Shown here: piece by piece, positions 3,360-60,673 of the stretch | Position numbering within the stretch: the first letter of the stretch is position 1 | Layout of the letters: each line of letters begins with the position of its first letter | Origin: Geosiphon pyriformis uo1 | Lineage: Eukaryota > Fungi > Glomeromycota | Direction of reading: 5' to 3' | NCBI GenBank assembly: GCA_016748015.1 | Contig: JAAOMT010000512.1 | Span: 62,001 to 126,000, forward strand | DNA length: 64,000 bases | Notes under the pieces: generated by a model | What the model was told of the DNA's origin: nothing | The model's input: the letters and a program-made list of their open reading frames with translations, nothing else | The model's database searches: none | Position numbers and translations under genes: made by a program

Positions 3360-6300
3360 CAGTAGCAGAATTAAAAAAAATAGGAACAAACCATTTAGAA
3401 TTTGTAAAAACCTTATTCCAACATTACAAAAAGCATCTTGGATTGACAAATAATAATTGGCCAGTAGAATCAGCTTTCAATTACTACATTAACAAAAGAA
3501 TTGTATATTATTTGGGAGACCAAGGAAATCCAGAATTTGTCTTCAACAATTTCTTCAGTGAACTGCTCTAAAGCACCATACTGCCACAGAATTATTTATT
3601 CACACCACTAATCACAGAAATAAACAAAAAAATTGAAAAATACATCAAACAAAAATTTTTTATCACTTTTGCTAACAAAGAAAAAAAAAAATTGCAAACA
3701 CCAGCAGAAACCCCAAAGCAAATACAATTACCTACTTAGAAGAAACAGAAAGTTGATTTACCTACTAACTTATTATATTATTACACATCCAAAAACACCA
3801 TTAATATAATAGGTGTGTCCACAGCAAATACAACAATATCACTAAACAAAATTTTATTTCAAAGTAAACAGAAGAAAACAGATTTATTAAGAACATATGG
3901 TGATTATTTTGAAGGATTTAAATTGCAATCCCCAATGTCATCAAAAGTTTGATTATTACCACCACAACCCGATTTTAGAGCTGCTAGTCCTTGGAAAATA
4001 ACCAACTCTAAGAAAGAGAAAAATAGTGATCAGAAAATCAATAATCAAAACTCAATCTTAGAAAACTCAGAAATATTAACTTTGATTGTTCCAACTTAGC
4101 AAAATCAGAACAATTCAAATTCCAATATTACTAATTAGCAAAACTTACCTCCAGTAATTATAATCAATCTATCACCAGTTGTTATACTACTATAACAACC
4201 ATAGCCACAACTTTAACAACAACCACCACCACCACTACAACTTCAACAACAGTTACAACAATCAATGATCTATGCTCCAATTGCAAAACTTGAAAAATTT
4301 ACCAGTAAAGAGGATAATGTCTAAGTCTGATTAAATAATATTGCTAAAGCAATCATGGCAAATAACTGGAATAATGCCAGAGTACTTCAAGCAATTCCAT
4401 ATTTTCTTCAGAATACTGCCAATTCATGGTATTAGAATCTTGTCAACAAATTACTAAACTTTAATGTATTTAAAACTGCATTTCTACAGTATTTTAGTGA
4501 TAATAATAGTATTAATTACCTAACCAATAGTTTCACTACAATTAAACAAGATAATACTAAAGCAGCTACCACTTACTTGGAACATTTCCATAAAAATCTA
4601 TGCCAAATACAAGCCATTAAAGCTGATTACTTTACAGCATCACAGATTCTGAATCAGTTTATCCACAGGTTGTGCAACAGCTTGCTACAGAAAATATGTT
4701 CAATATACCCAAATATACTCTAAAATACAGTCATACACACCCAAGATTTCAAATCAATGGAGTTAGAAGTCAATCACATCCAAGCTATAAATCTAGTAAT
4801 AAACAGATCATCTGAATTGGATTCTAAGCTAAAACAATTCAGTAATTCAATTAATCAAAAACTAAAGGAGTACTTAGCTAATAATAATAGCAATCAAGTC
4901 ATTTATTAGCTGTCACAACATTGTGAAAACCCAGGAAATCCCAATTGACCCCAACATTAGTTATAATATTACTTATAAAGAAAAACAGATATAGAAAAAT
5001 AGTAGACCAATAAGAGAATAATAGTTAACATGTGAGCATATTGTTTAACAATATAGAGCAATATCAGAAATTATAGTATATTGCTTAGCAATGTGAAGCA
5101 ATATTAGAAAATTAGAGCACATTGTTTAGCAATGTGAGCATTGTTCAAGAAATCATAGCACATTGCTCAAGAATATGAGTAATTTCATAGAACATAAATT
5201 AAGTATATATAGCAGTAATATTAGAAGCAAAAAAGACAAATCTCTTAGTTTAGATTTGATCTAAGCAACATTTTACATCACAAATATCAATAAATAATTA
5301 TTCAATATCTCAAATCTACTTTCCATTATCAACACTTCATGTTAATAGTAATTGATACTTAACTACATTAAAACAATAGCTCTTGATCATGGCTATTGAC
5401 AGAATACTAACATTTATTGCCTTGGCTTATTATTTTATTTTATTTTCTTTTATTTTATTTTGTTTGTTATTTCTTGTTATATACTAATTAATTAAAAGAT
5501 TAAAGTGCTGAGTTATTAATGTCAGGATATAGCACTGGTAAAAGACCCAAGAATAAGAATAGACACTTAGATTTGAGGATAGCTTATCAGGAGATTGCCA
5601 GCCACCACATCAAGAAAAAAATTGACAAAATTGCAATTCTGGAAAGTGATAGACAACAACTACTTAACCCATAAGTTGACATTAGAAACACCATTTAAAG
5701 GAAATTACATTGGAATCTCTGTCTATTATACAAAAAACTCAACCAAAACCTTCAGATATCAATGCTATTATATCTATTAAGCACCAAGTTATGGGTTTGT
5801 TATTTGCTTTAAAACTCCAAATAATCACCTATAACAACAATTATCATTATCAAATTAACAATGGCCACAAAAGACACATATTTGTCATTATTGTAGTAAA
5901 CAAAGACATCTAAAAATAGATTGCCAGTTAAAGTTAAATAACCAATGATCAAAAATTCAATATCAAAATTCCAATTGCAGATTTCAAACTCTGAACTATG
6001 CCAATAATCTATCAAATAAACAGTATCAATATCAGCATTATTATTCTTAAATAATGCAGCCAATTTATCAAGCACCAATCTATTAACACTTAGCCTCAGT
6101 AATTTATCAATTATGTCAAACTTAACTAATTTATCAACCCCAACTAATTTTAACATTATTACAGAACTTACTTCAAAATAGAAACCAGAGACCAAAAACT
6201 ATGCAAATCCATCAAAATTGGCAATTGGCAATAGTAATATACTAACTGATTTCTAGTTCAACAGCCCAACAATCTGAATCATGACAGCAAAATTCAGGAA

Positions 6301-10534: not shown

Positions 10535-10542
10535 TTTGGTGC

Positions 10543-11492
10543 TGTTACTGGAGGTTTTTGGTCTCTTTTCTTAAATGTTGTAACTGTCTGTTGGTTGCAA
10601 ATTCACGTTTTCTAGAAGTAGTTGAACTTCCAATAATTGAATTTCTCTTCAAATTATCTTCTATAATTTGAACTGCTGGGCTTATAAGTAGAATGGCCAA
10701 TTCCATGCCAGTTGCTTTGTGTAGTTATGTTGTAGTAAATGTCAACTCTTTCCCAGGAATTGCTTATCTAGAAGCTCACTAAAAATGTGTAGTTACTTTG
10801 CTGTAAAAGTTAACTCTTCTACAGGAATCTTGTCTGTAGACTACTCTAATGATTGTAATAAAAAAAAAAAAGAAAAATAAAAGAAATGTAAAAGAAATAG
10901 GATTTTATCAAGGGAAACGTTTTCTATTCAGGCCTGGAGTCACTAACAGTTTACTGAAATTTGTAGCTAATCAATTTCAAAACGTTAGTTGGGTTTTGAG
11001 GATTTTCCAAGTGCAATAATTAAAGAATTTGGTTTTTTGAATTTTTTGATATTTATTTCTTTTTGTGTGTGTAGAAATGGTTCTAAGTGATAACTCTAAA
11101 GTAAAATACATTTTCTTGAAAAGAAAAGCTCTTCTTTTATACAACTTGTTGTAGTACTAGTCTATAAACTTGCACTTTTTCTCTTTGCTCAAATTTTGGC
11201 AAACTAAAGATACATTTTAATGAACTACAAGTTATTTCGCTGAACTATTGATTAATTTGGATAAACTATTCATAATTTCGGCGAATTTTAGAATGTTACA
11301 AAGTTCAGGGTATTGTGTAATTTGATCATCTTACTTTCTGTTGTACTAATTGGATTATTAATTAATTCGTGATATGTGATAAATTGATTAAATAATAAGT
11401 GATAATTTGAAATGATATTAATATACTAATTAATTATAGGGATTATAAGGGTAATTTCATGCTAATTACTAACTAAAATTCTACTGGTAACA
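10543..11492 (-). repeat. B3 3' LTR (950 bp)
   Basis: Direct repeat of 19434-20423; preceded on the minus strand by the PPT at 11496-11505. Confidence 0.95.
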
Positions 11493-12179
11493 TAATCTCC
11501 TTCTCAAAACTGAGCTCTATCAAAGTCCAAGCACTATCTGTAATATTGAGATAGTGATCCAAAATAATTGAAGTAATCTGGTCTGAAAATTGTTGAAATT
11601 TCAGTTCTGTGAGTTTGCCAATATATTAGACTTTCATTGGTTGCAGTATTAGATTTTGTAGAACATTTTCACAAGTATTAAACAAATCATAGAGTCTAAA
11701 AGCTGCTCTAAGTTTGTAGTGAGTGTTTATTGATCCAGCTGCTGTTTTAATTCATTGTGGATTTGTTTTTGTATAGTTTCAGGAATGAGATTTGTTGCTT
11801 CAAGTTCCAGTTTTCGTTCATAAAGTGTCTTTCCAATGTGAAAGTATTTATAGATAGGGGTGTGTTTATTGTTCTGTTCATTGAGAAGTAGTAGAAGTTT
11901 TTGTTGCATTGTAGCATTTGGTGAAATATCAATAGGGGCAATTAAAAAATTTTCTTCCAGTACTTGCTTCAAAAGTCTTGGTAACCTATTTTCAGAGTGA
12001 CTTCTTGTTTTTTTTCTATAAGAGTAATAGTTCTGTGAATGATTTGCTACTGGGACTGTGATTTTTTTCTGAATGTAATTAATTTGACTTCCATTAATCA
12101 TTATAAATAAGTCAGAAAGTGTTTTCAAGGCTAACATTAACTTTTGGGATATTTGTTGAATATTTTGGGGAATAATCAT
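11473..12179 (-). pseudogene. B3 accessory ORF3 (~235 aa, unknown function), one frameshift near 11750; runs through the PPT into the LTR
   Basis: ORF 11727-12179 (MIIPQNIQQISQKL...YKYFHIGKTLYERK). The continuation HYKLRAAFRLYDLF...KEIMLPVEF* is recovered by comparison with B2 and B1. Confidence 0.8.
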
Positions 12180-12324
12180 GATAAAATTAACTAATTATGA
12201 AAAGAGAGAATAAAAAAAATTATTTTTGGATATGGAGTTTTTATTTGTTTTTGGGTTTGGGTGTTTTTTGTAATTTATTTACTATTTTTGTCTTTGTGTT
12301 TTTATTAGAAAATTAGTGTAAAAT

Positions 12325-13710
12325 TTAAGTGTTCAAGTTTGGTTGTTGTTCTATTATAATTATTGGTTTTAAATTTTAGAGAATATCTTTAGGATTAATT
12401 AAAGGGGCATGTGTACCAATTTGTGGAATTAATAGTTCAGGATTGTTTCTGGAATGATAGTATTTCAATCTGTCTTCATGTGCAACTTTTGTTAGTATTT
12501 TGTCATCAAGTCTTAACTTGTATAATCTATTGCCTAGAATTTCGTGAATATAAAATGGTTCATCCCATTTGTTTTCAAATTTCCCATTCCATTGTTTTTT
12601 AGTCTTAGTTCTGTGTAAAAGAACTTTATTTCTAACTTTAAATTCGTTGGTAATAGGTGGTAATTTGTTGTTATGTCTTTCTTTTTGTTGAGCTTGGGAA
12701 TGTTCAATATGAGTTGCTGCTATTCTTTTTTTTCCTTCTAGTGTACTAAGAAGAGTGTAGGCTCTTCTTTGGAGTGTTTTTTGAAAGTTTTCTTCATTGA
12801 TTGGTTGCACTAAGTATGTTTCCACTGTGAAATTAATTGGTAATGTTGCTGTTCTTTCATAAATAAGATCAAATAGTGTGTGTTTTATAGTATCTTGTTT
12901 TAGTATTCTGTATGCTAGTAATACTGATGGAATAAAGATATCCCATTTCTGCTCAAAGTCTGTTGAGACTTTGGCTAGAGATTTACACAATGTTCTGTTG
13001 AAATGTTCTATAAGTCCATTTGTTTGAAGGTAATAAGGTAATGATAGAGGTCTTTTGATATTGAACTGTTCACAAATTTCTTGTATCAAGTTGTTTACAA
13101 AATGTGTTCCTTGATCAGATAAGAGTTCAATTGGACATCTATGTCTACAGATAATGTCTTCATAGATGAAATTTGCTACTGATTTTGCATCTGCTCTTTG
13201 GATGGCTCTAGCTTCAGGCCATTTGGTAAGCTAATTTACTGCAACTGCAATATAATGATTTTTTTGGGTTGTGATAGGTAATGGTCCGACTAAATCAATT
13301 CCAACTCTGTCAAAAGGTTGTCCAACTTTGATTGGATTTAAAGGTTCTGTGGGGCAAGTTTCTCCTCTTTTTTAACAACTATCACAAGATTCTACATATT
13401 GTCAAATGTTTTTTTGCATGTGAGGCCAAAAATAATATTCAAGAGTTCTTTGAATTGTTTCATTTCTTCCCAAGTGTGCTGAAAAAGAATCTGTGTGCAT
13501 GTTGTATAGAATTGTTTTTTTTTCATTTTTTTGTACTAATCTGAGTGGTTGGTTTGAGTTTTTACGATTTTTGTAATAGATTTTGTTGTGGTGTATAAAA
13601 TATTGTTTGGATTGGTGTTGTAATCGATGTTTTTCACTTGGAGACTAATTTTCTGGCATGGTGAGAGTTTCCAAATAGTTTTTGATGTTGTTGTAGTTTT
13701 CTGGATCCAT
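12325..13710 (-). pseudogene. B3 integrase as a separate ORF, few stops
   Basis: Starts MDPENYNNIK. Contains PFDRVGIDLVGPL, LLSDQGTHF, QTNGLIEHFNRTL and a C-terminal GPY/F-like KWDEPF..YKL (ORF 12376-13089). Confidence 0.92.
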
Positions 13711-13777
13711 TGTTGTTGATCTTGTTGTTTGTTCTGCTGTTAAGTTTGTTGGTGTTTTGTTGGTATTGATGTTAGTA

Positions 13778-16700
13778 TTAATATTGTCTCATTCTTGAAA
13801 GGCTATTAACATTGGTGTGTAGTTTTCCTGGTTTGTAATGTACAATGTATTTGTAGTCTGCTAGGAAGTCATTCCATTGAGACTGTTTGGCACTTTGTTC
13901 AGTTTTCTTTTTATTAAGCCATTTGAGGCCAATATTGTTAGTTATTATGTCAAATTTTTTTCCATTCTTCAGGTATTGTTGAAAGTGTTTAAAAGCCCAG
14001 ATGACTGCAGCAGCTTTCAATTCAGTTAAGCCATATTTGAGTTCTGTTGACTTGAGTGTTCTACTGGCATAGACAATAACTTGTTCCTGGCCATTTTCAT
14101 CCAATTGTGATAAGATGGCACCAAATGCTATGTGTAAAGCATCAGTGGCTAATTGGAATTATTTGTTAAAGTCTGAGTAAGCAAGAACTGGGGCTGTTGT
14201 CAATTTTGTTTTGAGAGTTTCAAAAGCTTTTTGTTGTTCTTCAGTCTATTTGTATGGTATGTTTTTGTTGGTAAGATAATTAAGTGGTTTGGCAATTTCT
14301 AAGAATCCTTTTATGAATTTTTGATAGTAAGAGGCTAATTCTACAAATCCTCTTAGTTCTATAGTATTTCTGGGGGTTTGAAAGTTTTTGACAGCATTGA
14401 TTGTTCCTGGATTTGGTTTGACTCCATCTTTACTAACTATGTGTCCAAAAAAGATCAAGCTTGTTTTTCCAAAGTAACATTTCTCAATGTTTAATTTTAA
14501 TCCTGCTTTCCGTAATTGTTGAAAAACTTCTTGCAGGTGAATGAGATGGGCTTCAAAGCTTGGTGAGTATACATCAGTATTATCAAGATAGACAACTACT
14601 GATTGCCACAAGAGCCCTTCATATACAACATCTATGAGTCACTGAAATATTGCTGGTGCATTGCAAAGTCCAAAGGGCATAACATTGAACTCATAGTTTC
14701 CTTCTTGGATGGTAAATGCTGTTTTGGATCGGTCTTTTGAGTCCATTTTGACTTGTCAGTATCCACTTTCCAAGTCTAAAGTTGAGAAGAACTTGGCTTT
14801 TCCTAGAGCATCTAGCATGTCATCAATTCTTGGAAGAGAGTAGGCATCTCCAATTGTCACACTGTTCAATTGGCAATAGTCAACACAAAATCTGATTTTT
14901 CCATTTTTTTTTTGACAAAGACTACTGGTGAGGTCCAAGGACTTCTTGATAGTTGAATCAATCTGTTATTGAGCATTCTCTGGACTTCTTCTCTGATGAA
15001 TTGGTGGCTGGCAGGTGGTACTCAATAAGCTTGTTGACATTTTGGTAGAGCATCTCCTGTATAGATCTGATGTTGAACAATATCTATTTTTTCTAAGTCA
15101 TTGTTGTCTTTTGCAAATATATCTGCAAATTCAGCTATCAATTGTTTCAATTGTCTTTGTTGTTGAGGTTCTAAGGGACTCATGTTGATTTGAGAGAGTT
15201 TTTCTTCCAAAAAGTGGTAGTTTTCAGTAGTGGGAATGATATTTGGATTTGGAAGTAGAGTGTGCCTTACAATTTCGATAAAATTAGAAACAATTTGAGG
15301 GTTTTCATCTTGAAAAATATTGCTGTGTATGATTCCAATCTCTAGTTTGTTTAATAAGACAATAGAATAATTATTGGGATTGTAGAATGTAACTCAAAAT
15401 TTTTTCATTCTTTTGGGAATATAAACGTTTGGAATTGTGATTTCATGCTTCAAACAGATTTGTTTATTGGATTCAAAGATTTGTTGTGTAGTGATGAGTT
15501 TTGAGCAAGTGTAAATTTTGTGATGTTCTCCAAAAGGTGAAATGGTAATTGGCTGGAGAAGTTGAAGAATCTGGTAAGATTCATTTTGTGTATTAAAAGC
15601 TATGTTTACTGGAACTGTAAATCGTCCAGTTGAACCAAAACCTTGAGTTCCTCTTTTATTTTTTCCCAATTGTTCTCTGTTGTTTACTGATTGTAAACCC
15701 GAAATGTTGATTAAGGGTAAGTAAATTGCTTGAGCAATTTTTTCAGCATGTTCAATTTTGAATGGTTTGTCTGTTTTATTCTGTAACATGATGGTAATGT
15801 CTCCAGTGTATTCTGCATCTATAACTTCTTCTTTAATATTGATTTTTTTGCTTGCCAATGATGATCTGGAGGCAATTTGCACTATTGCTCCTAGTGGAAT
15901 TTCAAGAGCAATTTTGAGATTAATTTTTGTTAAGGACTTTGGTTGGAGAACCAAAATATCTTTTCCTAGGTATCTTAGGTTATATCCAGCATCAATTTTG
16001 TGTGCTTTTTCTGGTCTGATTCCTTGGCCATGGTTGTCAAAATATTTAAGTTGTAGAAGTGATTGCTTTTCAAGAAGATAGATGAGTGTGGTTGGTAGTT
16101 CTTCTTTTAGTTTAGATACTCCAAATTCGATTTCATTTTCATCATTCTCATCTGGCAGAGGAATGCTAAGAGCATAACATTCTAAACACTATTGGTCATC
16201 ACAAGGCATAACACATTTTTCACACAATTGAATGTTCATTTGCTTTAATCATTAAATTTGAGCTTCTTTGGTTGGATATGTGTGACTTGCAATTTGGTAG
16301 TAAGTTTTTACTTCATCTTTATAATCAAATCCAGTTAATTCCATGGTATACTCAATATATTCAGCTTCTTTCATTTGGTGGACATCTTTTTGGGTGGCTC
16401 TATTGATCAATGTCATTGCTAGGTCAAAAATTATTTCAGCATTATGAGGGTAGTGGTAAAGTTTATTGAGAGCACTGTTGTATGCTACATCAAATGGTGT
16501 TCTTCTTCTGACTTTTTCCGAAATTGATAGAGCATATTGACAGGTTTGATTACATACTCCTCTTCTCATTGCAACATCAATCCAGTTGCATTCTTCTGGT
16601 AGCATATCTCCACATGTAAGACAAGATGTGTTGTCCCATTTTCCACTTCTTTTTGGAGATCCAAATCGTTCTTTATGGCATGCTTTGCAAAAGTAATAGA

Positions 16701-19390
16701 TACGAGTTTCATATTCCTCTTCTGAAGAAATACATGCTCTCATTGATGAAAGCTTTTTTTTGCAATCTTTGCATTTGAGTGGAATATAGAATGGTTGTTT
16801 CTGTGGTTCTGGTGTAGAATATCTAACTTTCTTCCATTCTCTTGATTCTTCAAAAATCTTCTGTTCTGTTTCTTTAGCCCAATTGGATATTGATCCAAGA
16901 GCCATGTAGGTTTCAGTAAATGGCATTTCTTTCTCCTCTTCAAATTCAAATACTGGGACTTTTTCTGATTATTTGTTAAAGATACCACAAGTTGCAGGTA
17001 CTATGATATATTGTCCTTGGTATGAGATTTTAAGTTCTTGAGTTTCCCAGTTCAGGTTTGCATTGGCCTTGAGAAGCCAATCATTTCCGACTAGAGCTTG
17101 GTATTGGGGTGCATCCATAACAGGAACTTTAACTGGAATGGTGATTCTATCAATTGTAAAGGGGAAATTATTAATTTCTCCTACTGGAGTCTTCTTTATA
17201 CCATTAGCTGTGACAATAACTGTTTGAGCTGATCTGTCTACATTTTGTTTGAGTTGTTGCATCAGCTGGTAAGTAATAATACTTCCAGCTGATCCACTAT
17301 TTAAGATTAAGCAAATGGGTTTTCCTTCTACTGTAGCTTCTGTATACATAGCAGTAATTGCTTTCTGTTCATTGATTGCTGCATTACTAAGCAGAAATGG
17401 TGATTCATTTGCTTCAAATTCAAATGGAAATATATTTAACAGATTGGCATTTTGGACAATTTGAGCTGGTGGAATGGTGTGGTTGGAAGGGTTTAATCTT
17501 GGCACTGCAACTTCATCTTCAGAAAGTGCAGTTTGTTGAAAATCCGATTCCTCTGGTATTGTAAGATAATTGGTTGAGTATAATAGTAATTGGGTCTTTG
17601 CTGACCAGAATTTCGGGGAACCAACTGGTTATTTGAATTGATTCTGTTGTTGTTACTCTGCAATTGATTTTGGGGTGTGAATTAGTTATGTTGAACCAAT
17701 CTTCTTGCTGGTACTTGATATTGTTGAGTGGGTGGTGTCTGATATGGCTGAATTGGTAAAGGTTGCTGATATTGTTGCTGTATTGGTTGTAAAGCTGGTG
17801 AATAGTAACTGTTTTGATTTTGTGGTCTTGGTAAATAATAGGTTGGTGGTGGAGATTGGTAATAAGATTGTTGTGGTAAAGAGTAACGTTGATTACTCCT
17901 GTTTTGTTGGTCTCTTTGTAATTTCCTACAATCTCATTTCTAGTGTCCTGAAATTCCACAATAATGACAATTTTGAAGTTGGTTGTTGGATGGTGATCCA
18001 AAATTGTTTTGGTTGCATTGTTGTGGGGGTTGATATCTTTGTGGTTGTTGTTGGTTTGTGAAGTAGCTTTCAACCTTTTTTGTGAGTTGGTCTATCTTCT
18101 CTTCAGCTGCTGAGCTGGTTTCTCCAATTGCAAAGTTTACAAGCTTGGTGTGATTTGCTTCTTCTATTGTCATTTTATAGCTCTTTGCATGTCTAATAGT
18201 AGTTGCTAAGTCTGCTGAAGCATGTGAATGGACTTTCTTAATCAGTTTGTTTTTTAACCCTGCTATAAACTGATCCAGAATTTGAGCATCAGAATAGTAG
18301 TCATTGGTTTCTAATTGTCAGATTCGTCTAAGAAGTTTGTTAAATCTTTCAAGATAGGTCATAACAGTTTCAGATGTTTTTTGTTTGATATTGCAAAAGT
18401 GGTTTCTGAGAGTAATAAAGGTATTGTTGTTGGTGAATTGTTGTAGAAAAGCATCTTTGAATGCTTGCCAGTTTTCAAATAGTTCTTCTAAATTTTCAAA
18501 CCATTCTTCTGCTGTTCTTTGAAGAAAGTAGGAAATTGCTTTAAGCATTCTTGCTGCAATCCAACCATTTGCATCTTCTGCTTTTTGAACTTTGTCAAGC
18601 CATTTTTGAGGACTGGTATTATTGTCTTCACCAGTGAATTCTGGGATTTTTGCAATGTAAGCAGTTGCCATTTTTTCTTCGTTTTCTGTAATTTCTTCTG
18701 GTTTTGATTCAGTTTCTTCACTTTCCAAGCTTTCTGAATGATTACTTTTATTTTCCTGTAAGTAATCAATGATATTGGCACTTGTTGATATTGGTTCCTG
18801 CTGTTGAATAGGGTTTCTAGATGACTGAAAATCTTCTGGTCTGGAGAAGCAGTTAAGTGGTGAATTTGGTGTTTGTGGTTGAATAAGTAAAATTAGAAAT
18901 AGTGTAATAGAAAGTGGTAATTTGATATTGGTTCCTTGTTCAAATATTTGCAAGTGTTTGGCAGTTGTCTTTTGTAGTGTTGGAGTGTTTGGAGTGGTTT
19001 TTGAGTATTGCTTCAATCTTTGTTTGTCTTTGTTGCTTGTTTCTGTCTCTGATTTAAACTCAATAGAGTATTGAGACTGTATTGGGTATTTTTCTTCACA
19101 ATACTCAATAATGTTAAAATTAAGTTCTTAGAAGTAAGTAGCAAGTGTTTTACTGTTCAGGTCTTCTGTTTCTAATTGTGAATAGTGCACTAAATTATTG
19201 TAAAAGTTGCTTCTAACTTCTGAAATGTTGTAGTTTCTAAAAAGATAATTGTTGATGCAGTTTTTAATGTATTGGTATACTGATTTCTTAACAACTTCAA
19301 TTCCGTCTGGAATGTTGAATCTTTGCTTGCAGTAGGTGTAAATTGACTTGTAATACTCTAGAATTGCTGTGTCTGGTGTGGTCACTACTT
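13778..19390 (-). pseudogene. B3 gag-PR-Cys-rich domain-dUTPase-RT-RNaseH polyprotein gene, disrupted
   Basis: ORFs 18318-19016 and 17940-18173 (Gag, CHYCGISGH), 16969-17505 (protease LILNSGSA...LVGNDWL), 16252-16926 (Cys-rich), 15394-15954 (dUTPase, RGTQGFGSTG), 14246-14938 (RT), 13778-14104 (RH). Confidence 0.95.
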
Positions 19391-19433
19391 TAAATTTGTT
19401 GTTGCTGTGTTATTTCTATGGAAGAGCACCAAA

Positions 19434-20423
19434 TGTTACTGGAGATTTTTGGTCTTTTTTCTTGAATGTTGTAACTGTCTGTTGGTTGCAAATTTACATT
19501 TTCTAGAAGTAGTTGAACCTCCAATAACTGAATTTCTCTTCAAATTATCTCCTATAATTTGAACTATTAGGCTTATAAGTGGAATGGCCAATTCCGTGCC
19601 AGTTGCTTTGTGTAGTTATGTTGTAGTAAACATCAACTCTTTCCCAAAAATTGCTTGTCTGGAAGCTTACTAAAAATGTGTAGTTACTTTGCTGTGAAAG
19701 TCAACTCTTCTACAGGAATCTCATCTGTAGGCTACTCTAATGATTGTAATAAGAAAAGAAAAGAAAAATAAAAGAAATGTAAAAAAAATAGGATTTTATC
19801 AAGGAAAACGTTTTCTATCCAGGCCTGGAGTCACTAACAGTTTACTGAAATTTGTAGCTAATCAATTTCAAAACGTTAGTTGGGTTTTAAGGATTTTCCA
19901 AGTGCAATAATTAAAGAATTTGGTTTTTCAAATTATTTGATATTTATTTCTTTTTGTGTATATAGAAATAGTTCTAAGTGATAACTCTAAAGTAAGATAT
20001 ATTTTCTTGAAGAAAAAAGCTTTTTTTTTATACAATTTGTTGTAGTACTAGTCTATAAACTTGCACTTTTTCTCTTTGCTCAAATTTTGGCAAACTAAAG
20101 ATATATTTTGATAAACTACAAGTTATTTCACTGAACTATTGATTAATTTGGATGAACTATTCATAATTTCGGCAAATTTCTATAAATTTCGGCAAATTTC
20201 TGTAAATTTTGGCGAATTTTAGAATGTTACAAAGTTCAGGGTATTGTGTAATTTGATCATCTTACTTTCTGTTGTACTAATTGGATTATTAATTGAATCA
20301 TGATATGTAATAAATTGATTAAATAATAAGTGATAATTTGAAATGATATTAATATACTAATTAATTATAAAGATTATAAGAGTAATTTCATGCTAATTAC
20401 TAGCTAAAATTCTACTGGTAACA
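19434..20423 (-). repeat. B3 5' LTR (990 bp)
   Basis: TGTTAC...TAACA termini; 40 bp longer than the 3' LTR because of two extra ~20-bp repeat units at ~20165-20220. Confidence 0.95.
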
Positions 20424-20459
20424 GTGCTTTCTTATGGAAATAATACAGCAATAACAACT

Positions 20460-25569: not shown

Positions 25570-26423
25570 TGTTACAGTTGAATTTTTTGGGTCTCAAATT
25601 AACTAACAAACTCATAACTTGGTGCTTAAAACTACTCATGTTGTTGATAATATTTTTAAGTGGTTGGTATCTAAAGGTTTTCCAAATGAGTCCTTTGTAT
25701 AATGGACAGAGATTCAATAGTTGTTTTATCCGTAGCTTCCCAGACTTGCAAGTCTGTCAATTTTTTTCTTGGCTTGGTGGCTGGCAATCCTCTGGTAAGT
25801 AATCCATATCTTCTGTACATGTTCTACTCCCTTGCAGGAGTTTTTTACCAGGCAATCCTTGACGTCAGTAATCAGCACTTTCAATCAATTGGTTAGTGCA
25901 CAATAACAAAATCACAGAAAATAAAGAAAATAAAGAAATCTAAAGAAATAAGCCAAGGTGATTTGCAGATTAGTATCCTGTCAATAGCCATGATCAAAAG
26001 CTATTGTTCCAGTATGGTTAAGTATCAATTACTATCAACATAAAGTGTTGATAGTGGAGAGTGGATTGAGATATGAAATAATTATTTATTTGATGATTGG
26101 GTTTTTAGGCTAAGGATTCTGTGGTATTGATTCCATCTTTTTTGTTTTTAATACTACTGCTATATATACATATTTGAGATTTTTCAATTCCTCAATTCCT
26201 TGCAACAGGAATCTTGAATTTCTTGGAATCCTGCGATTTCTGATGAGAGGAATTCTGGGAATTCTGGAATCCTGTGATTCCTTGTTGGAGAATTCTGAAA
26301 TTCCTGAAATTCTGCAATTCCTCTGAGAGGAATCCTGGAATTCCACATTTACTATGTCTATCTCTGATTGGCTAATATCTACTGACTAATAATACTATAT
26401 TTTCCTATATTCTATAAGTAACA
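25570..26423 (-). repeat. A2 3' LTR (854 bp)
   Basis: Direct repeat of 34788-35640. Confidence 0.95.
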
Positions 26424-26436
26424 TTATTCCCTCCTT

Positions 26437-27096
26437 TTAATATTAAGCTCTGTCAAAATCTAATTCTTTTAATTCTTCCTCTTGAATTATTTTTTGAACT
26501 TCTTTTTTGAGTATTACTTGTGTTATTTAAATTTGTAATTTTTCAAATTGGGCATTGGTCATTTTTCCTAATTGATTACTCGTAACTGTGTCCATTGCTG
26601 TGTTGAATAAGATTTTTGGTCAGTCTTGAAATTCCATATATAGCCAGTAAATGGCTCGAGCTTGTGTGGTTAGATTGTTTTTTCTCACAAATTGTTTCAG
26701 TTGTCTCAGTATTGTTGTGTCGAATAATCGTTTTGTTTTGTTGGTGTACAAATTCTGGATATTTACGTGTTGTCCCAAGTGGAAATAGCAATAGTTTTTC
26801 AGAAATTGTTGTGTTCACCAAGTTCAATTTTCTCTAGTAAGTTTTTGGTGTAGTTCGACTATTTGTTGTTCTTTTATGGCCAATTTTATCTTGGTCATAA
26901 TTTTGTTAACAACATTTTCAAGTCTTTTCTGTACTTTGTATTGTAGTATCTTTGCCGTATTTTTGTAACAAATGGTTTGTTGATTGATTGTAATTTCTAT
27001 TTTCTGGTGTTGAATTAATTGAAAAATTTGTTGAGCTAGTGAATAGATATTGTCCATAATTTCCATTTTTCTGATCTTTTCTGTCGTATTAACTAT
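26437..27096 (-). pseudogene. A2 accessory ORF3 (~219 aa, unknown function)
   Basis: ORF 26824-27066 (MEIMDNIYSLAQQIFQ) plus in-frame continuation NYCYFHLGQ..QARAIY..NQLGKMTNAQF. Homologous to A1 and A3. Confidence 0.8.
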
Positions 27097-27120
27097 GTTT
27101 TTTATATATTCTTTTGTTGA

Positions 27121-28503
27121 TTAATTGGACATGTTGTTGTCAATGATAATTATTGGTTCTAGATCTCATGGAATCTTATCTGGTTGGACTAGTATTTTCT
27201 GTACTTCCAATTGTGAAATATTATTAGTAGATTCTGATACTATCTGGTGATATGGTTTCAGTCGATTATTATGTACTGCTTTGGCTAAGATTCTGTTGTC
27301 CAGTCTTAATTTGTAAGCTCTATTTTCTAGAATTTCTTCTATGTAAAATGGTCCATCCCATTTGGGATCGAATTTTCCACTCCATTGTTTTTCTGCTTTG
27401 GTATGATGTAGTAATACTTTGTCTCCAATCTTGAATTCAACTGGTTTGTCTGGTAGTTAACTATCGTGTCTTTCTTTCTGTTTTTTTTGTGACTTTTGAA
27501 TATTATCAGCTGTTTTTTTTCGTTTGTTTTCTAATGTTTCTATTAAGTTATATGTTCTTCTTAGCAATGTTTCTTGAAAATTTTCTTCTGTTATTGGTTC
27601 AGCTGAATATGTATTAATTTTTCTCTTTACTGGTAATGTTGCTGTTCTCCCATACACTAATTCAAATGGTGTTGCTTGTGTAGTATCTTGTTTCATTGTC
27701 TGATAAGCAAATAGTACTGATAGTATGAACAAATCCCAATTGTTCTGGTTTTCTTGGCTGAGCTTAGCTATTGCTTCACACAATGTTCTATTGAATCTTT
27801 CAACTAATCCATTGGTTTGTGGATGGTATGATAATAATAATGGTCTCTTAATTCCAAATCTTTGGCTCAATTCTGTTAATGTTTTGTTCACAAAATGAGT
27901 TCTTTGGTCTGATAATAATTCTTTTGGACATCTATGTTGACAAATTAAATCTTGATGAATAAATTTGGCAACGGATTCTGCATCTGCTCTTTGAATTGCT
28001 TTTGCTTCTGGCTATTTTGTAAGGTAGTCCATGGCTACTACTATATATCTGTTGCCTCTGCTGGTAATTGTCAATGGTCTGACTAAATTGATTCCAATGC
28101 AGTCAAATGGTTGTCCCACTTTGATTGGTCTTAATAGTTCACTGGGTCTTGTTTCTCTTTTTTGCTGACAAGCATCACAATTTTGAACATATTGAATGAT
28201 GTCTGGGTATATTGATGGCCAATAGTATCTCTTTCTGGTTCTTTCCATGGTTGCTTCTTTGTGAAAATGTCCTGCTGTTGGATTTGAGTACATGTTAAAT
28301 AATATGGTCTCTTTTTTTGGCTCTGTAATTACTCTGGTTGGTTGATTTGGATCCCTTCTATTTTTCCAATAAAGTATATTTTGGTGAGTAATAAAATATT
28401 TTGATTGTTGTTTGATACTCTTTCATTCCATTTGAGATAAATTCTCCTTGAACTGTTGAGTGGTTATATAATGTTAAAGTTGTTAATATTTTTGTATGTT
28501 CAT
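27121..28503 (-). pseudogene. A2 integrase as a separate ORF
   Basis: Starts MNIQKY. ORFs 28012-28293 (GH...YYWP...CDACQ zinc finger) and 27457-27891 (YHPQTNGLVERFNRTL). Confidence 0.92.
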
Positions 28504-28568
28504 CTTTTGTTGTATTTTTCGTTGGTATTGTTCTGGTTTTTGTTATATTTTTGGGTTTTGAAATGTTT

Positions 28569-31500
28569 TTAGATTTGTTTTATTCGTGACAAACTATTAA
28601 CATTTCCATTGTTTTTTCTTTTCTTATAGTGTATAGTATAAGTATATCATGAGAGTGCCATTTTCTATTTGGATTGGTAGTCATCATCACATTCTTGCTT
28701 TTGAAGTGATGTTAATCTTTTATGATCTATGTATATATCAAATTTTTAGCTCAAGTATTCGTTCCACTTCATAACTGCCCAATAGATTGCTAAGTGTTCT
28801 TGTTCTGGTGTTCCATAGTTCTTTTCAGCTGGTGTTAGACTTTGGCTGGTATATGCTACTGGATGTTCTCTGCCGTCTGGTTCTCTTTGAAATAGTACTG
28901 CTCCCAATGCTTGGCTGGATGCATCGGTGGTAATGATGAATAGTTTGCTGTGATCTGGATAGATCAGTACTGGAGCTTGGATGAGCTTTCTTTTTAGAAT
29001 ATCAAAAGCTTTTTGTTGACTTTTTGTCTATTTATATTTTGTATTTTTGTTTTACAATTGGTTAAGTGGCTGTGCTTTTTTGGATAAGTTCTTGATAAAA
29101 CATCAATAGTAGCTGGTGAATCCCAAGAATGATTTCAGTTCTGTCATATTAGTCAGCACTGGAAAGTTCTTTACTATCTCTATTTTCTCTGGATCCGTTT
29201 TGATGCTGTCTTTGCTGACTATGTGTCCCAAGAATTTTAGTTCTGTCTTGTCAAAAAAGCACTTTGTTGCATTTAACTTTAGTCCTGCTCTTCTTAGTCT
29301 TTCGAACACTTGTTGAAGATGATGAAGATGATCATCAAATGTTTTTGAGAATACATTGGTGTCATCCAAGTATACAACTACTGATTTCCACAATAAGCCA
29401 GTATAAACGATTTTCATTAGCTGTTGGAAAGTGGCTGGAGCATTGGTTAAGCCAAATGGCATAACTTCAAACTCAAAGTTTCCCTCTCTTGTGGTGAATG
29501 GTGTTTTTTTTTTGTCGGCTGGATCCATGGCTACTTGCCAGTAACCACTATCTAAGTCTAATGTTGAGAACCATTTGTTTCCACCAAAAGCATCGAATAG
29601 TTCTTGTATCTGTGGAGTTGGATAGCTGTTTTCATGAGTTATACTATTTAGTTTCCTGTTGTCCACACAAAATCAGATCTTTCTATTCTTCTTCTGGACA
29701 AGTACTACTGATGATGACCATAGGCTTATTGATAGCTGAATTAACCTATTGTCAAGCATTTGGTTAATCTCTTGACAGATGATTCTATGGCTGGCTAGTG
29801 GTACTCTGTATGCTTGCTGTTTGATTGGCATTACATCTCCAATCTTGATTTGATGTTGGATGATATCAGTTCTGCCAAATTCATTTTCACTGGCAAAGAT
29901 GTCATTGAAATTATTGAGTAATATCTTGAGCTGCATATGTTGTAGTGGATCTAGATTTCTCATGTTTATTTGTTCTAATTGTTCTGGTTGGAGCAAATAA
30001 CATTCATTTCGTCCATAGATTGTTTGTGATGTAATGTCAACATATCCACAAAGTTGTGGAAAGTCTGGAATGGGGTTTGGTGGTTGATCCTCTATTTCAG
30101 TGTTTAAGTATCCAATGGTGGTTCCGGCTGGTATTACTATAACATTTTCTGTGTTGTTGTAGATGGGAATTTTGATGTGACTATAATCTTTGACTGATAT
30201 GTGGAAATTGATGAGTCTAACCTCTCCTGATTCGCAAAGTGTTGGTTCTGCTTCAAAAATCTGATTTTGTTCTTTTTCCTTCCTTTCTATTGCTAGCATA
30301 TACTGGCTATATGGTGGAATGGAAATAGCTTGACCGGTTGAGATAATTTCTCCTTGGCCAACAATCTTTTCCTCTGCCATATTAACTGGTACATCTATTC
30401 TACCCATTGATCCAAATTCTTGTATTTCTCTTGTTGTTATCCCTAATTCCTCCTTTGTTCTCACTAACACTAAGCTAGCTACTTTGACTAGTGGCAGGAA
30501 TATTGCCTGTGCTATCTTTTCATTTGGCTCAATGGTATAAGCCTTTTCTGAGTCATTTTATAGCATGGCACTGATATTTCCTGTATATTCTGCATCCACT
30601 ATTCCCCCTCTAATGTTAATCCTTTTTTTTGCTAAGCTACTTCTAGATGCTAGTAGAACCATAGTTGTTGTTGGGATCTCTAAAGCTATTCTCAGATCAA
30701 TGCATACTCTCGCGTTTGGTTCCAATTTAATGGCATTTTTTTCTGGATATCTTAGATCAAATCCAGCATCAGTATCATGCACATGTTCTGGCATAATACC
30801 TTCGCCATTGTCACTATACCATTTCAACTCCTGTTCTTTGGAGAGATCTGGTAGGACAATGTATTGTTCATAGTTAGGATTAGAGTTTGCATCGTTGACA
30901 TTTTTGTTGCCACATTGTGTGGAACTGGAACTGGTGTTTTCATCATCATTGTTGTCAGAGTTTGAATTGGGATTGTAAACTAATTCCGATTCCGATGTAC
31001 AGCTGTTGATTGGTTTCTCTTCTTCAGGGATTGTGTAGATCATACATGGTGGTGAATTGTAAATGAGGTCACATGGAATTAAACAGTGGTTACATAACCT
31101 GGTGTTTATTTTTTCTAAGCATTGCTCCTGTTCCTCCCTTGTGGGTGCTAATTCCTGGTAATGTTCATGGAATTGCTCCAGATCTAGAAGATTTATGACT
31201 GGTTCTGGGTCCCAGTCAAGTTCTATGGGCTCTGGAGGATTGTTCTTGATTTTTCTGATCTCTTTGGGTGTTGTTTCTTTTATTTTGGTGATTGTTATTC
31301 TCCAAATTTTATTGTCGTCATGTGGACAACTGTCCAGTCACTGCATGGCTCTTCTCCAGGCTGCTTTTATTAGGGTTTCTTTCCTTACTCAGTCACTTAT
31401 TAGAATCATGTATTGACATGACATATCACATGTTCTTCCATGTCTTGGAATGTCGTTCCACATCCCTTCATCTAGCAGGGTCTCCCCACAAGCAAAACAA

Positions 31501-34500
31501 AGTTGGTTATCCCATTTTTTTTGTCTCTTTGGTCGTCCAAAGTGTTTGAGTAAGCATGGACAACAGTAGAACTTTGTTGCAGTGTGGTATTCCTCATTGT
31601 TGCCACAGCATGCACCTATTGACGACAGTTTCTTGCCGCAATTGACGCATACAAGCCTTGGCCATCGATAATTGGATTGTTGTAGAGTGTGGTGGGTGTA
31701 AGAATTATAAATAGTGACAGTTGGTGGCGTTCCTTTTTCCTTTTCTTTTCTTTTTCCCTTAGGTCCAAGTCAGATTGTTGGTTTCTTAAGTAAGTTCATT
31801 TGTTTGCTTTCCTTTCCTGTTGTCATCTCAAAAGAGTATTGGTGGTACCTCATTGTGCTCTTCATCAGCCCACGACACTTGGTAGACTTCCCAGATAGGT
31901 TTTGGTTTCTCTTCCTTGAAGTTGATTAGTGGTGCCATGGTGTTGGTAGCCTTGAAGTGGCTACACATTGTTAGTACTCACATGTGTTGTCTGTTCTGGC
32001 TGAGTTGAAGCTCTTATGTATTCCAGTCCAGAGTGGTGTTCATCTTAGACAGCCAGTTATTACCAACTAAAGCTTGGTATTGGGTGGCTTTTATGACGAG
32101 TACTTTGATTAGTACTATGATGCTATTAATTTTGATTAGTAAGTCATTGATTTTGCCAATTGGAGTCTTGGTTACTCCATCAGCCATGATGATTCTAGCA
32201 CTAGCAGCTCAATCAACTCGGTGATCTAATTGATCCATGAGTTGTTATGTGATGATGCTGCCTGCTGAACCACTGTCAAGAATTAGTTTGATGGGATGGC
32301 CATCAATTTTCACATCAGTGTACATGGCGGTAATTGGCTTTTCTTCTAGTGTGGTTCCACTGAATAATGACATGGTTGACGGTTTCTCGAGTTTGAATGA
32401 AAAAATGACATCCAGAGATTTGTCTTTCATGATTGTGGCAGGTGGAATGTTGCTGATAAGTATTTGTTTAAGTTCTTGGTTGTTGGGTGTGGCATTTTCT
32501 GGAGTAACCAAGAGACTTAAATAGTTTTGGGAATTCGGGTTTTGGGTGGCGCCTGTACCCAAATTCCGAGAATGGGGTCCTGAGCTTTGGTAAGAGAAGC
32601 TGGAGATCAATTAATGAACAACTATCGCCGATCTCCAATTTTGAGCAATTCTGGGTCTCGGGTTTCTTGATGTTATTATAGCTGAGTTTTGGAGTGATGT
32701 TTGAATTGATGGTTGAGACTGATAAATTATTTGGGGCTGTGGCTGATAAATTACTGGAGGCTGCTGTTGATAAATTGCTGGTGGCTGTGGTTAATAAACT
32801 GGAGGTTAATATACTAGTGGTTGATAGATTGGTTGCTGTGTTCTTGGCAGGTAAGTATTTTGATATTGGTTTTGATCTTGATTTGAATAATAATTTGGAG
32901 TTTAGAACTGGCAATCAGGGTTTTTGTATTGATTTCCCAATCATTGATTGCTATAAGTATGGCAATTAACTCGAATATGGCCTTGTTTACCACAGTTGTG
33001 GCAGACACGCATTTTTGGTTGCCACAGCAGACTAGGTGCTGTTGAGGATGATAGATGTGATTGATTTTGGAAACAATTCACGTTTTCTGAATTATTGCAT
33101 CATTGTGGTGGTTAATATATGGCGTGATTGTCAGCTAAGTATCCCTCTAATTTCTGATTAATTGTTTCGCTGAATTGTTTTAATTTGGAATCCAATTTAG
33201 ATGATCCATTCATTACTAGGTTTACTGCTTGAGTGTGGTTGGCTTTTAACTCAGCTGCTTCAAAATCTCTGGCATGTGTAACTGTGGTAGAGAGGTCAAC
33301 TGGATGCATTGGGTGTACTCGCTAGAGGAGGTTACTGCGCAAACCTCTAATAAATTGGTTCAAAATCTGTGGCACTGTAAAATAGTCAGCTTGAATTGCT
33401 TGGATCTGGCACAGATTTCTATGGAAGCGTTCCAAATAAATAGTAATTGCTTCAGTATCTCCTTGTTTGATGGTGGTAAAGAGGTTGGCTAACTTGTTGA
33501 TGCTCTTATTGTTGCTGAAATATCTTACAAATTCCATCTTGAAGTCATTGAAGGTTTGGGGTTTGACAACTAGACTTTGATACCATGCATCTGCAGTATT
33601 CTTTAGAAAGTATGGAATGGCTTGAAGTGCTTGGGCATTATTTCATCCGTTCGCAGTAATTGCTTTTTCTATGTCATTCAGCTATACTTGCACATCGTTT
33701 TTTTCACTGGTAAAGTTGTCAAGTTTTGCAATTGGTACATAGGCCATTGGATCTAAATTGGGTTGTTGTGGTGGCTGTTAAAGCAGTTGTTGTTGTACTG
33801 GTTGTTGATGTGGTAGTTGAAATGGCTGTTGTATGAGTTTGGCTACTGGATTAATTGGCAGTTGATTAATAATGATTACTGGAGGTAAGTTTTGCTGATT
33901 AATTAATTTGGGGTTTGGATTGTTCTACCTTTGATGATTCGGAGTTTTGATTTCTGAATTTTCTAGATTTAGATTTTGCTGAGCTTAAAGATTTGGGGTT
34001 TCAACTTCTAGGTTTTCAGTGATCAGGTTTTGGTAAGTAAATTCTTGATCTTCTGATTTTTTTTCCTTTTTTTCTTCAGATAGTTCTCACGGGGTAGCAG
34101 TTCCAAAGTCCAGTTAAGGTGGCGATGATCAAATTCCTGATGGAGTTGGTGATCACAATTTAAATCCCTCAAAATATTTGCCATATGGTTCTAATGGATC
34201 TGTTTTTCTTTGTTTACTTTGGAATGGAAATTGTCTGAATGTTGATATCACATTTGATGTGGACACATTTGCTGATGTTATATTGATGGCGCTTTCTGGT
34301 GTGTAGTAATAGGATGAGACAGTTGGTGATTCAACTCTTGTTTTCTTCCAAGTGGATGATTGTATCTTTTTGGGTGTTACCACTGGTGTTTGTAGTTTTT
34401 CTTTGTCTTTACTGGCGTAAGTAATTGGATATCTTTGTTGGGTGTGATGTTCAATTTCTTTGTTGATCTCAGTAATGATGGAGGCAAAATTGTGATTTGT

Positions 34501-34725
34501 TGGCAGGTTGGTATTTTGAATTAATTCTTTGTAGAAAGTTTCCCTGGCTGATTCAGTATTCACTGGTGTTCCTAACAAAGAGGAAATCTTTTTATTGACG
34601 TAGAAATTAAAGGCTGATTCGGCAAATATATGATTGTGGTTTAATTCCAAGTGTTGACAATAGTGTTGAAATAAGGATTTCGCAAATCCTAAATGGTTTG
34701 CTCCTATGTTTTCTGATTCTGCCAC
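28569..34725 (-). pseudogene. A2 gag-PR-Cys-rich domain-dUTPase-RT-RNaseH polyprotein gene, disrupted
   Basis: Protease LILDSGSAG (32245-32610), dUTPase DAGFDL/ASRSSLA/GGIVDAEY (30558-31043), RT MPFGLTNAPATF/YLDD (29103-29666). Confidence 0.95.
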
Positions 34726-34787
34726 TTTTGGTTTGGTGTTGTCAGTGCTGGTTCTTTGTAGGATTATACCTTACAAAAAGCACCAAA

Positions 34788-35640
34788 TGTTATAGTTGAA
34801 TCTTTTGGGTCTCAAATCAACTAACAAACTTGTAACTTGGTGCTCAAAACTACTCATGTTGTTGATAATATCTTTAAATGGTTGGTATCTGAAGGTTTTC
34901 CAAATGAGTTCTTTGTATAATGGACAGAGATTCAATAGTTGTTTTATCCGTAGCTTTCCAGACTTGCAAGTCTGTCAATTTTTTTCTTGGCTTGGTGGCC
35001 AGCAATCCTCTGGTAAGTAATCTGTATCTTCTGTACATGTCCTACTTTTTCGCAGGGGTCTTTTACCAGGCAATCTTTGATGTCAGTAATTAGTGCTTTC
35101 AATTAATTAGTTAGTGCACAATAACAAAATCACAGAAAATAAAGAAAATAAAGAAATCTAAAGAAATAAGCCAAGGCAATTTGCAGATTAGTATCCTGTC
35201 AATAGCCATGATCAAGAGCTATTGTTTCAGTGTAGTTAAGTATCAATTACTATCAACATGAAGTGTTGATAGTGGAGAGTGGATTGAGATATGAAATAAT
35301 TATTTATTTGATGATTGGGTTTCTAGGCTAAGGATTCTGTGGTATTAATTCCATTTTTTCTGTTTCTAATACTACTGCTATATATACATATTTGAGATTC
35401 CTCAATTCCTTAATTTCTTGTGACAGGAATTCTGGAATTCCTGGAATCTTGCAATTCCTAATGAGAAGAATTCTGGAATTCTGGAATCCTGTAATTTCTC
35501 ATTGGGGAATTCTGAAATTCTTGGAATCCTGTAATTCTTCTGAGAAGAATCCTGAAATTTCACATTTACTACATCTACCTCTGATTGGCTAATATCTACT
35601 GACTAATAATACTATATTTTTCTATATTCTATGAGTAACA
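34788..35640 (-). repeat. A2 5' LTR (853 bp)
   Basis: TGTTA...TAACA termini; PBS adjacent at ~34774-34785. Confidence 0.95.
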
Positions 35641-48963: not shown

Positions 48964-49110
48964 GTATATAGTGCTGTTTTAACTGGCTTGAGTGGCTGGT
49001 TATATATAAAAAAAGCATAAATAATACTTAATTTAGAGTCTTGTTTGAGTTTATGTACTTAAATAATAATTGGACTGCATTTATTAAACTTTTAATAATA
49101 AAAAATATAT
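48964..49110 (+). mobile_element. 3' UTR/tail of a LINE, host of B1
   Basis: Similar to the LINE 3' end at ~62470-62610 (TGAGTGGCTGGT...AAAAA.GCATAA...CATTTATTAAA..TTAATAATAAAAA). Confidence 0.65.
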
Positions 49111-51290: not shown

Positions 51291-51393
51291 ATAGATGAAA
51301 CAACATGGTGTTGTAAATTTGATTAGGGACAAAAAACTTAATGTTTCTTGGTATAAAATTAAAAAACATTTGAATGTTTTGGGTAATAAGCAT

Positions 51394-52268
51394 TGTTACA
51401 GATGATTATTTTTGCTGTTGAATTAAATAACAAACCCATAACTTGGTGCTTAAAAGCTACTTCCGTTGATAATGTTCTATAAGTGTTGTATTTGAAGGTT
51501 TTGATGGAGTCTTTTGTATAACAAACAGAGATTCAATAGTGTTGATAGTAGATGTATCTTTCCAAGAGTTTTCTCAATTTTTTTCTCAGCGTGGTGGCTG
51601 GATTTAGTCTGGCAGTCGTGCCCTTTTGGTAAGCTATCTGATAATATATAAAATCCTACCCTTATTTCTGGGTTTTTTACCAGGCTATTCTTGATGTCAA
51701 TAATTCAGCACTTAATCTCTTAATCAATTAGTATATAACAACAAAATCAAAGAAAGAAAGAAAATAAAATAAAATAAAATAAAGAAAATAAAATAAGAAA
51801 ATAGAGAAAATAAGCCAAGGCAATTTGGTATGTTAATATCTCATCAATAGCCATAATCAAGAACTATTGTTCCAGCGTGGTTAAGTATCAATTACTATTA
51901 ACATGAAGTGTTGATAGTGAAGAGTGGTTTTGAGATATGAAACATTTATTTATTTGATGATTTGTGTTTCTGGGCTAAGGATTCTGTTGTATCAATTCTG
52001 TCTTTTCTGTTTCTAACACTACTGCTATATATACATAATTGAGATCCCTCAATTCCTTGATTTTTCACAACAGGAATCTTGGAATTCTTGGAATCCTGCG
52101 ATTCCTATGAGAGGAATTCTGGAATCCTGCAATTCTTCGTCAGAGAATTCTGAAATTCCTGAAATCCTGCAATTCCTGAGAGGAATCCTGGAATTCCACA
52201 TTTACTATATCTACTTCTGATTGGCTAATAATCATGCTAATATATTTCCTATATTTCTATGAGTAATA
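51394..52268 (-). repeat. A3 3' LTR (875 bp)
   Basis: Direct repeat of 60674-61551. Confidence 0.95.
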
Positions 52269-52281
52269 TTATTCCCTCCTT

Positions 52282-52940: not shown

Positions 52941-52964
52941 GTTTTTATATATTCTTTTGCTAAA

Positions 52965-54345: not shown

Positions 54346-54406
54346 CTTTTGTTATATTTTCATTGGTATTGTTCTGGTTTTGTTATATTTTTGTGTTAAA
54401 ATGTTC

Positions 54407-60611: not shown

Positions 60612-60673
60612 TTTTGGTTTGGTGTTGTCGGTGCTGGTTCTTTGTAAGATTATACTTTACAGGAAGCACCAAA

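Follow-up and report, generated by a model that had tools for sequence, protein, structure and literature searches.

A variant of Ty3/Gypsy elements with a separate integrase frame, likely a lineage of glomeromycotan fungi, and a proposed mode of integrase expression

Introduction

Both LTR (long terminal repeat) retrotransposons and retroviruses normally bring their integrase into the particle as part of Pol, and a lineage that breaks this link must have solved translation and packaging of the enzyme differently. In Gmr1-like elements, the integrase lies upstream of the reverse transcriptase (RT), and the Ginger/GIN elements are integrase-only DNA transposons with terminal inverted repeats and no RT. 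Downstream frames are reached in several ways elsewhere: in LINE-1, ribosomes reinitiate at ORF2 after a spacer of roughly 60 nucleotides (nt), and overlapping stop and start codons occur in SART1 and some fungal RNA viruses; to our knowledge, stop-restart translation is not known for the integrase of an LTR element. The subject of this report is a nest of six LTR elements in a stretch of 64,000 nt from the fungus Geosiphon pyriformis (hereafter the window, i.e. the whole stretch analysed), in which the integrase is encoded by an open reading frame (ORF) of its own behind RNase H (RH). Ty3/Gypsy elements generally encode one or two proteins, with the integrase inside Pol (PMC12440569), and LTR elements make up 41.2% of the G. 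pyriformis genome (PMC11952901).

Results

The integrase is encoded outside Pol

The six elements fall into two families (A1-A3 and B1-B3), and the same domain order, including a Cys-rich insert and ORF3, was recovered by tblastn in 6/6, as the initial annotation of this DNA had proposed. Its observation that the LTRs of the two families are not alignable by eye was also borne out: no blastn match of at least 200 nt at E ≤ 1e-10 was obtained between A- and B-type LTRs. The layout, which we consider practically certain, is Gag-protease (PR)-Cys domain-dUTPase-RT-RH (stop), an integrase with its own Met, and ORF3 extending to the polypurine tract. All the copies are dead (0/6 intact). The first ORF is a single Gag-PR-Cys-dUTPase-RT-RH frame, because Gag to RH of A3 are read in one frame of 1,751 codons interrupted by point stops only, and because the Gag/PR frameshift of B3 is a private 1-nt deletion that B1 and B2 do not carry.

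RH terminates in TAA in all six copies and the integrase starts 31-67 nt downstream, at ATG in four copies and at ATA in B1 and B2, the latter consistent with G>A decay. In run X1, 1,573 contigs mapped to the B junction; variation at 10% of depth or more was seen at none of the three bases of the stop codon, and the G of the integrase ATG was altered in 37% of depth, similar to neighbouring positions.

The DNA context of relatives was examined in 81 loci fetched by integrase alignment, the split relatives being from metagenomes. RH stop and separate integrase ORF were found in 15 loci, a fused RH-integrase frame in 21 and an integrase before RT in 2; the remainder were too short or broken to classify. 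The gaps of the 15 split loci were -11, -8, -8, 27, 30, 37, 62, 63, 74, 89, 110, 163, 278, 365 and 727 nt, with frame offsets 0, 1 and 2 in 3, 6 and 6 loci, respectively. The same aligned Met begins 60 of the 80 listed integrase homologues of 380-445 amino acids (aa; scored by eye, in a search unable to return fused forms). One relative, L005, is intact: a Gag-RH ORF of at least 1,479 aa, an integrase of 422 aa and an ORF3 of 163 aa are followed by a purine tract, LTR and primer-binding site (PBS). The continuous RH-integrase frame that the initial annotation had named as counter-evidence was thus absent from intact relatives.

These loci bear on two other explanations. The first is that the split arose by decay through indels and C>T stops, or that an element with integrase only came to be nested by chance behind an RT. 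This would fit the heavy mutation of all window copies, the single C>T step that separates TAA from CAA, and the fact that nearly all LTR-pair differences are transitions. It is contradicted by open, unmutated relatives such as L005 with the same stop and Met, by the stop kept across copies in run X1 and by two trees (below) that group the split elements, and is very improbable. The separate integrase is real, and not decay: the relatives settle this point. Alternatively, the integrase might still be fused to Pol via programmed frameshifting, readthrough or a junction-spanning intron. The offset is +1 in 4/6 window copies, a +1 frameshift is geometrically possible in the overlap loci L004, L013 and L027 and in B3 and A1 of the window (short open-frame overlap), and readthrough is possible in L002. 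In 11/15 split loci, the integrase frame is closed past the RH stop or a second in-frame stop is present, so that neither a single frameshift nor readthrough can join RH and integrase. With all three offsets occurring, Met conserved at integrase position 1 and no common donor/acceptor pair found, we regard such fusion as unlikely.

Translation of the integrase

Based on features of the junctions, we propose, with a probability of roughly 0.5, that ribosomes which restart or enter internally near the RH stop translate the integrase from its own AUG, with the full-length RNA as the message. Stop-restart or internal entry would yield the integrase at low level, aided by a short unstructured A-rich spacer in the window families and by a hairpin in one sub-clade.

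The start context was compiled for 25 integrase starts, which were selected for a match beginning at Met (the ATG count itself is not independent): a purine was found at -3 in 21/25 and G at +4 in 21/25. Stop and start codons overlap at the RH-integrase junction of L004, L013 and L027, and at the integrase-ORF3 junction of L003 (-8) and L006 (-4). The spacers of B3 and A3, the only two folded, are A-rich and have no predicted structure. A bulged hairpin ends 3-15 nt ahead of the integrase AUG in nine loci of one integrase sub-clade (L003:295-331, L005:4464-4500, L006:186-222, L011:586-622, L014:491-527, L017:176-212, L022:9-45, L030:493-529 and L037:20-56), with a variant in the same place at L009:24-60 (model search E 0.012). 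In the alignment 97% of cells pair, both sides changed in 7/11 pairs and the CAnnGUGA loop is invariant. The covariation score was reached by 0/500 shuffles and slid controls scored far lower, the structure having been read from the same sequences; the same stems were returned by RNAalifold. No Rfam match was obtained in the 7 hairpin loci scanned. Taken together, the strong start contexts, the stop/start overlaps, the unstructured spacers and the hairpin favour restart or internal entry.

Several points weigh against this proposal. A model search did not find the hairpin in the window copies, reinitiation after an ORF of 1,700 codons is usually inefficient unless a tethering element is present, and the calicivirus-type motif TGGGA is absent from the last 90 nt of RH at 18/18 junctions. 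Simple restart fits poorly with L007 (365 nt gap, 7 ATGs) and L019 (727 nt, 12 ATGs), and the integrase-ORF3 gap is about 200 nt in B3 and more than 1.3 kb in L013. The B3 spacer contains TACTAAC and two YAGs, compatible with splicing, and the frameshift and readthrough geometries described above count on the same side.

The gaps of L007 and L019, the missing TGGGA and the splice-like motifs of B3 keep subgenomic mRNAs in play. Integrase and ORF3 would then, like env-type ORF3s, be first cistrons of messages spliced from near the 5' LTR or made from internal promoters; any gap length or frame would be tolerated, including the many upstream ATGs of L007 and L019, and the strong integrase start contexts and the branch-like TACTAAC of B3, followed by YAG, would fit as well. 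ORF3s of LTR elements typically come from spliced messages (PMC5408684). However, a YAG acceptor is absent from the gap at 10/18 junctions (three of these are overlaps, with no gap), though an acceptor could sit within RH; the recurring tight stop/start overlaps would be unneeded, and a hairpin 3 nt ahead of the AUG would be expected to impede scanning of a capped mRNA. Subgenomic expression is quite possible in our judgement, at somewhat less than even odds.

An integrase made in this way would lie outside the polyprotein, and would have to reach the particle or cDNA by binding to RNA, to Gag or to a helper. ORF3 would be read in the same way and would act as a basic nucleic-acid-binding accessory protein, for which a role as best candidate helper in integrase delivery is tentatively suggested and rather doubtful.

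The third open reading frame

A related ORF was found after the integrase in 14/82 loci (13 were seed loci and L024 was new) and in no fused locus. L021, L031 and L038 carry no ORF of the ORF3 family, and have other downstream ORFs instead. At L021:2942-5367 (ORFs of 198 aa and 612 aa), L036:1108-1974 and L031:3859-4378, the separate integrase is followed by ORFs that are different or longer, so the third ORF appears to be exchangeable.

The ORF3 profile gathered 527 clusters at E ≤ 0.001. The predicted structure is all-helical and soluble (predicted local distance difference test score, pLDDT, 95), and the members are basic (median isoelectric point about 9), with several Arg/Lys and Tyr positions kept; nucleic-acid binding is plausible from these properties. 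No membrane segment above the hydropathy cut-off was present in 213 sequences. No Pfam family, DUF1016_N included, matched more than 2/137 members at E ≤ 0.1, with no esterase or exonuclease among the matches, and the model gave no fold match. Env was rejected as an identity for ORF3, given the 213 sequences without a hydrophobic segment and the all-helical soluble model.

In Geosiphon, many ORF3 copies are open (221-239 aa), which indicates that the window ORF3 is a real coding frame. The A- and B-type proteins are homologous (probability 82%, 186 columns). The window B type was aligned with the metagenomic family by hhalign (alignment A5) at a probability of 57% over 102 columns; the A type reached 6% and is linked only via the B type. 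With the family hidden Markov model, 63 Geosiphon ORF3 proteins scored a median of 10.6 bits, compared with -0.4 for reversed sequences, and the window ORF3 and the metagenomic family share position and motif order. The window ORF3 is probably a diverged member of the 527-cluster family, the link being moderate. ORF3-family domains also occur inside longer annotated proteins, P0165 (Gigaspora margarita), P0204 and P0230 (Cetraspora pellucida), one of which has two copies; the host or different elements may have acquired them.

Distribution and phylogeny

Among named homologues of the integrase, the closest come from G. pyriformis, the nine highest-ranked rows showing 70-88% identity. Named members were Rhizophagus irregularis, R. 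clarus and Entrophospora for the integrase (10 clusters looked up), and for ORF3 they were R. irregularis, Gigaspora margarita, Cetraspora pellucida, Acaulospora morrowiae and Glomus cerebriforme, all of them Glomeromycota (20 clusters looked up).

RT-RH and integrase trees were built from the fetched loci only. In the RT-RH tree (44 rows), 17/18 split rows were grouped, including all six window copies (support 89/89); one fused row (L053) stood at the unresolved base of this group and L038 outside it. By approximately unbiased tests, a single clade of the 17 split rows was not rejected (p 0.43), nor was one of all 18 (p 0.21), which is no proof of either. In the integrase-core FastTree, the split rows, L038 excepted, had no fused row in their midst; L053 branched with fused elements. 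Clustering of the split elements thus has moderate support from both trees, and the loci with integrase first, L071 and L077, branch apart from them in both.

The Cys insert and dUTPase are distributed differently: neither was found in the 81 loci searched, which included six spanning PR to RT, and they therefore look like additions in the Geosiphon families. Several CxxC pairs of the insert are kept between A and B at about 30% identity, and zinc binding is predicted. G. pyriformis was the source of all 120 listed Cys-insert matches (of 245) and all 120 listed ORF3 matches (of 278). In the proposed history, the Geosiphon families would later have gained the zinc-binding insert and the dUTPase, and the latter would lower uracil incorporation into cDNA.

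The window elements are dead copies of a Ty3/Gypsy-derived LTR lineage, likely one of glomeromycotan fungi. The combined architecture had been put forward as a lineage trait; here, a wide lineage within the Glomeromycota is marked by the split integrase and ORF3, and the Cys domain and dUTPase were found in the Geosiphon families only. The suggestion of a distinct, possibly undescribed lineage gained support: a literature search outside Repbase, GyDB, REXdb and the Geosiphon genome papers met neither a described clade organized in this way nor any account of an LTR lineage with a separate integrase ORF. The phrase "virus-like gene complement" was overstated: ORF3 lacks a membrane segment and is unlike Env, and other elements, PosPlaTy3-5 of Postia and planarian ones, had been shown before to carry dUTPase between PR and RT (PMC2864245, PMC6431247).

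Organization of the window copies

B3 (10543-20423, minus strand) is uninterrupted and is inserted in the PBS of B2. All the following B3 features lie on the minus strand. The 5' LTR (19434-20423) and 3' LTR (10543-11492) have TG..CA ends and are 90% identical, with a purine tract ahead of the 3' LTR, and the element is flanked by the 4-bp target-site duplication GTGC (10539-10542 and 20424-20427, unstranded). The PBS (19420-19431), 2 nt past the LTR, starts TGGTGC (TT-TGGTGC), as in relatives L001 and L005. ORF1 (13778-19400, the 5' start being approximate for family B) carries point stops and two 1-nt frameshifts. In B3, the order of Pfam domains was Retrotrans_gag, aspartic protease, dUTPase, RVT_1, RT_RNaseH and rve. 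The Gag capsid core (18321-18677; PF03732, E 2e-10) is followed by a CCHC knuckle near 17950, the aspartic protease (16972-17400; DSG in A2 and A3, NSG in B3), the predicted zinc-binding Cys-rich insert (16192-16800; no family match) and the dUTPase (15619-16023; PF00692, E 1e-19). The five trimeric-dUTPase motifs are recognisable across the window copies. RT (14261-14920) has YLDD in A2 and A3 and YLDN in B3, and RH (13778-14239) ends in TAA at 13780-13778. The A/C-rich spacer of 67 nt (13711-13777) leads to the integrase ORF2 (12376-13710), which has its own Met, an N-terminal extension, HHCC, a DDE core, a GPF/Y-SH3 end and no chromodomain. ORF3 (11473-12179, about 235 aa) has one frameshift near 11746 and continues past the purine tract for a few bases of the 3' LTR.

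A2 (25570-35640; RH stop 28569, integrase ATG 28503, ORF3 about 27096-26497) and A3 (51394-61551; RH stop 54407, integrase ATG 54345, ORF3 about 52940-52300) are on the minus strand and, like B3, uninterrupted, in agreement with the initial annotation. Nested insertions split the other three, on the plus strand: B2 (9562-39376; RH stop 36125, integrase start 36183) is interrupted by B3 and A2, A1 (2511-42943; RH stop 40024, integrase ATG 40056) by an LTR-like insert and B2, and B1 (1-48963, its 5' LTR beyond the window; RH stop 45698, integrase start 45757) by A1. The RH of A1 is only partly recognisable. The insert in A1 (about 4963-5836), between Gag and protease, is A-type and LTR-like, probably a solo LTR. 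The 4-bp duplications at 10539, 25566, 51390 and 2507 read GTGC, ATGT/ACGT, GCAT and ATGT/ATGC, respectively, which suggests an alternating purine-pyrimidine target preference.

Transitions account for 384/399 differences over five LTR pairs (96%), mostly in CA, CT and CC contexts because little CpG is left (in B3, 0.10 of the expected amount). The C>T/G>A erosion of the window resembles repeat-induced point mutation or a methylation-driven process acting beyond CpG. Two blocks are low in G+C (48970-51390, 11%; 61560-64000, 20%); the first contains a family B integrase remnant, eroded mostly via G>A and C>T, and looks like the end-stage of the same process.

Among the relatives, RH carries a long acidic C-terminal extension and a Cys/His cluster ahead of the stop (L005:3506-4441, L019:4945-6705); related pieces occur in L003, L011, L014 and L030, and the extension is common across the hairpin sub-clade. 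In L016:1-1500, the Gag N-terminus is a long run of Cys-rich repeats.

Discussion

The lineage-wide variant of Ty3/Gypsy elements is real, and a mechanism of expression is proposed for it. This window contributes the ORF3 family together with its model, a Cys-dUTPase cassette confined to the Geosiphon families and, from relatives, the hairpin. The elements would bring in a polycistronic strategy of eukaryotes, a hairpin that is a candidate for translation control, and a protein family whose confidently modelled fold is unmatched. Short junction sequences and two small proteins would suffice for direct tests of translation and packaging. For annotation, hundreds of G. pyriformis "hypothetical proteins" are pieces of these elements. 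In its broadest form, the interpretation would be that of an old, phylum-wide LTR clade of Glomeromycota with a tricistronic RNA, in which lineage-specific cis-elements including the hairpin would drive cap-independent or restart translation of the integrase, and ORF3 would aid its delivery outside the polyprotein; we hold this possible, and short of probable. If true, tricistronic RNA and ORF3-aided delivery would represent a novel way in which reverse-transcribing elements express and assemble their components.

The elements resemble LINE-1, SART1, caliciviruses and fungal RNA viruses in having a downstream ORF that begins at or shortly past the upstream stop, where the two ORFs overlap or lie some 60 nt apart; they differ in having no TGGGA tether motif, and restart itself is here proposed from sequence. 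Compared by description only, Ginger/GIN likewise have a free-standing Gypsy-like integrase with HHCC, DDE and GPF/Y, but membership was rejected: RT-RH and LTRs occur in all six copies, with the integrase behind RT-RH inside an LTR element. Gmr1-like elements were rejected as well, since the integrase is downstream of RT in the window copies and L071 and L077 branch elsewhere. A chromovirus was excluded, as no chromodomain match was obtained and the integrases end soon after the GPF/Y-SH3 module. So was Troyka, which has CG..CG termini, a 3-bp duplication, no GPF/Y and usually a single Gag-Pol (PMC12440569), compared with TG..CA and 4 bp here.

The dUTPase-bearing LTR elements (PosPlaTy3-5, Phanerochaete, Tuber and planarian Burro; PMC2864245, PMC6431247) also have dUTPase between PR and RT, and dUTPase occurs in bdelloid clades (PMC5408684); the passages cited mention no separate integrase for the former, and the dUTPase here has a Cys-rich insert in front of it. 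Bdelloid Vesta, Juno and TelKA (non-env ORF3) and env-bearing errantiviruses likewise have an additional ORF on the 3' side, between integrase and 3' LTR, but the present ORF3 has neither a membrane segment nor an esterase, exonuclease or other Pfam match.

The closest likeness is to Ty3/Gypsy: TG..CA LTRs, a 4-bp duplication, a tRNA-type PBS, a polypurine tract, the order PR-RT-RH-integrase and the GPF/Y end of the integrase. In a small reference set, Ty3 was the best solved relative of L013 RT-RH (E 2e-93; 8r0s 5e-61, Pr125Pol/foamy about 1e-28) and of the integrase profile (E 1e-49). Unlike Ty3/Gypsy, the integrase lies outside Pol with its own Met, and a third ORF of no known family follows. 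With the integrase outside Pol, the elements are therefore filed as a Gypsy-derived variant and not as canonical members of Ty3/Gypsy.

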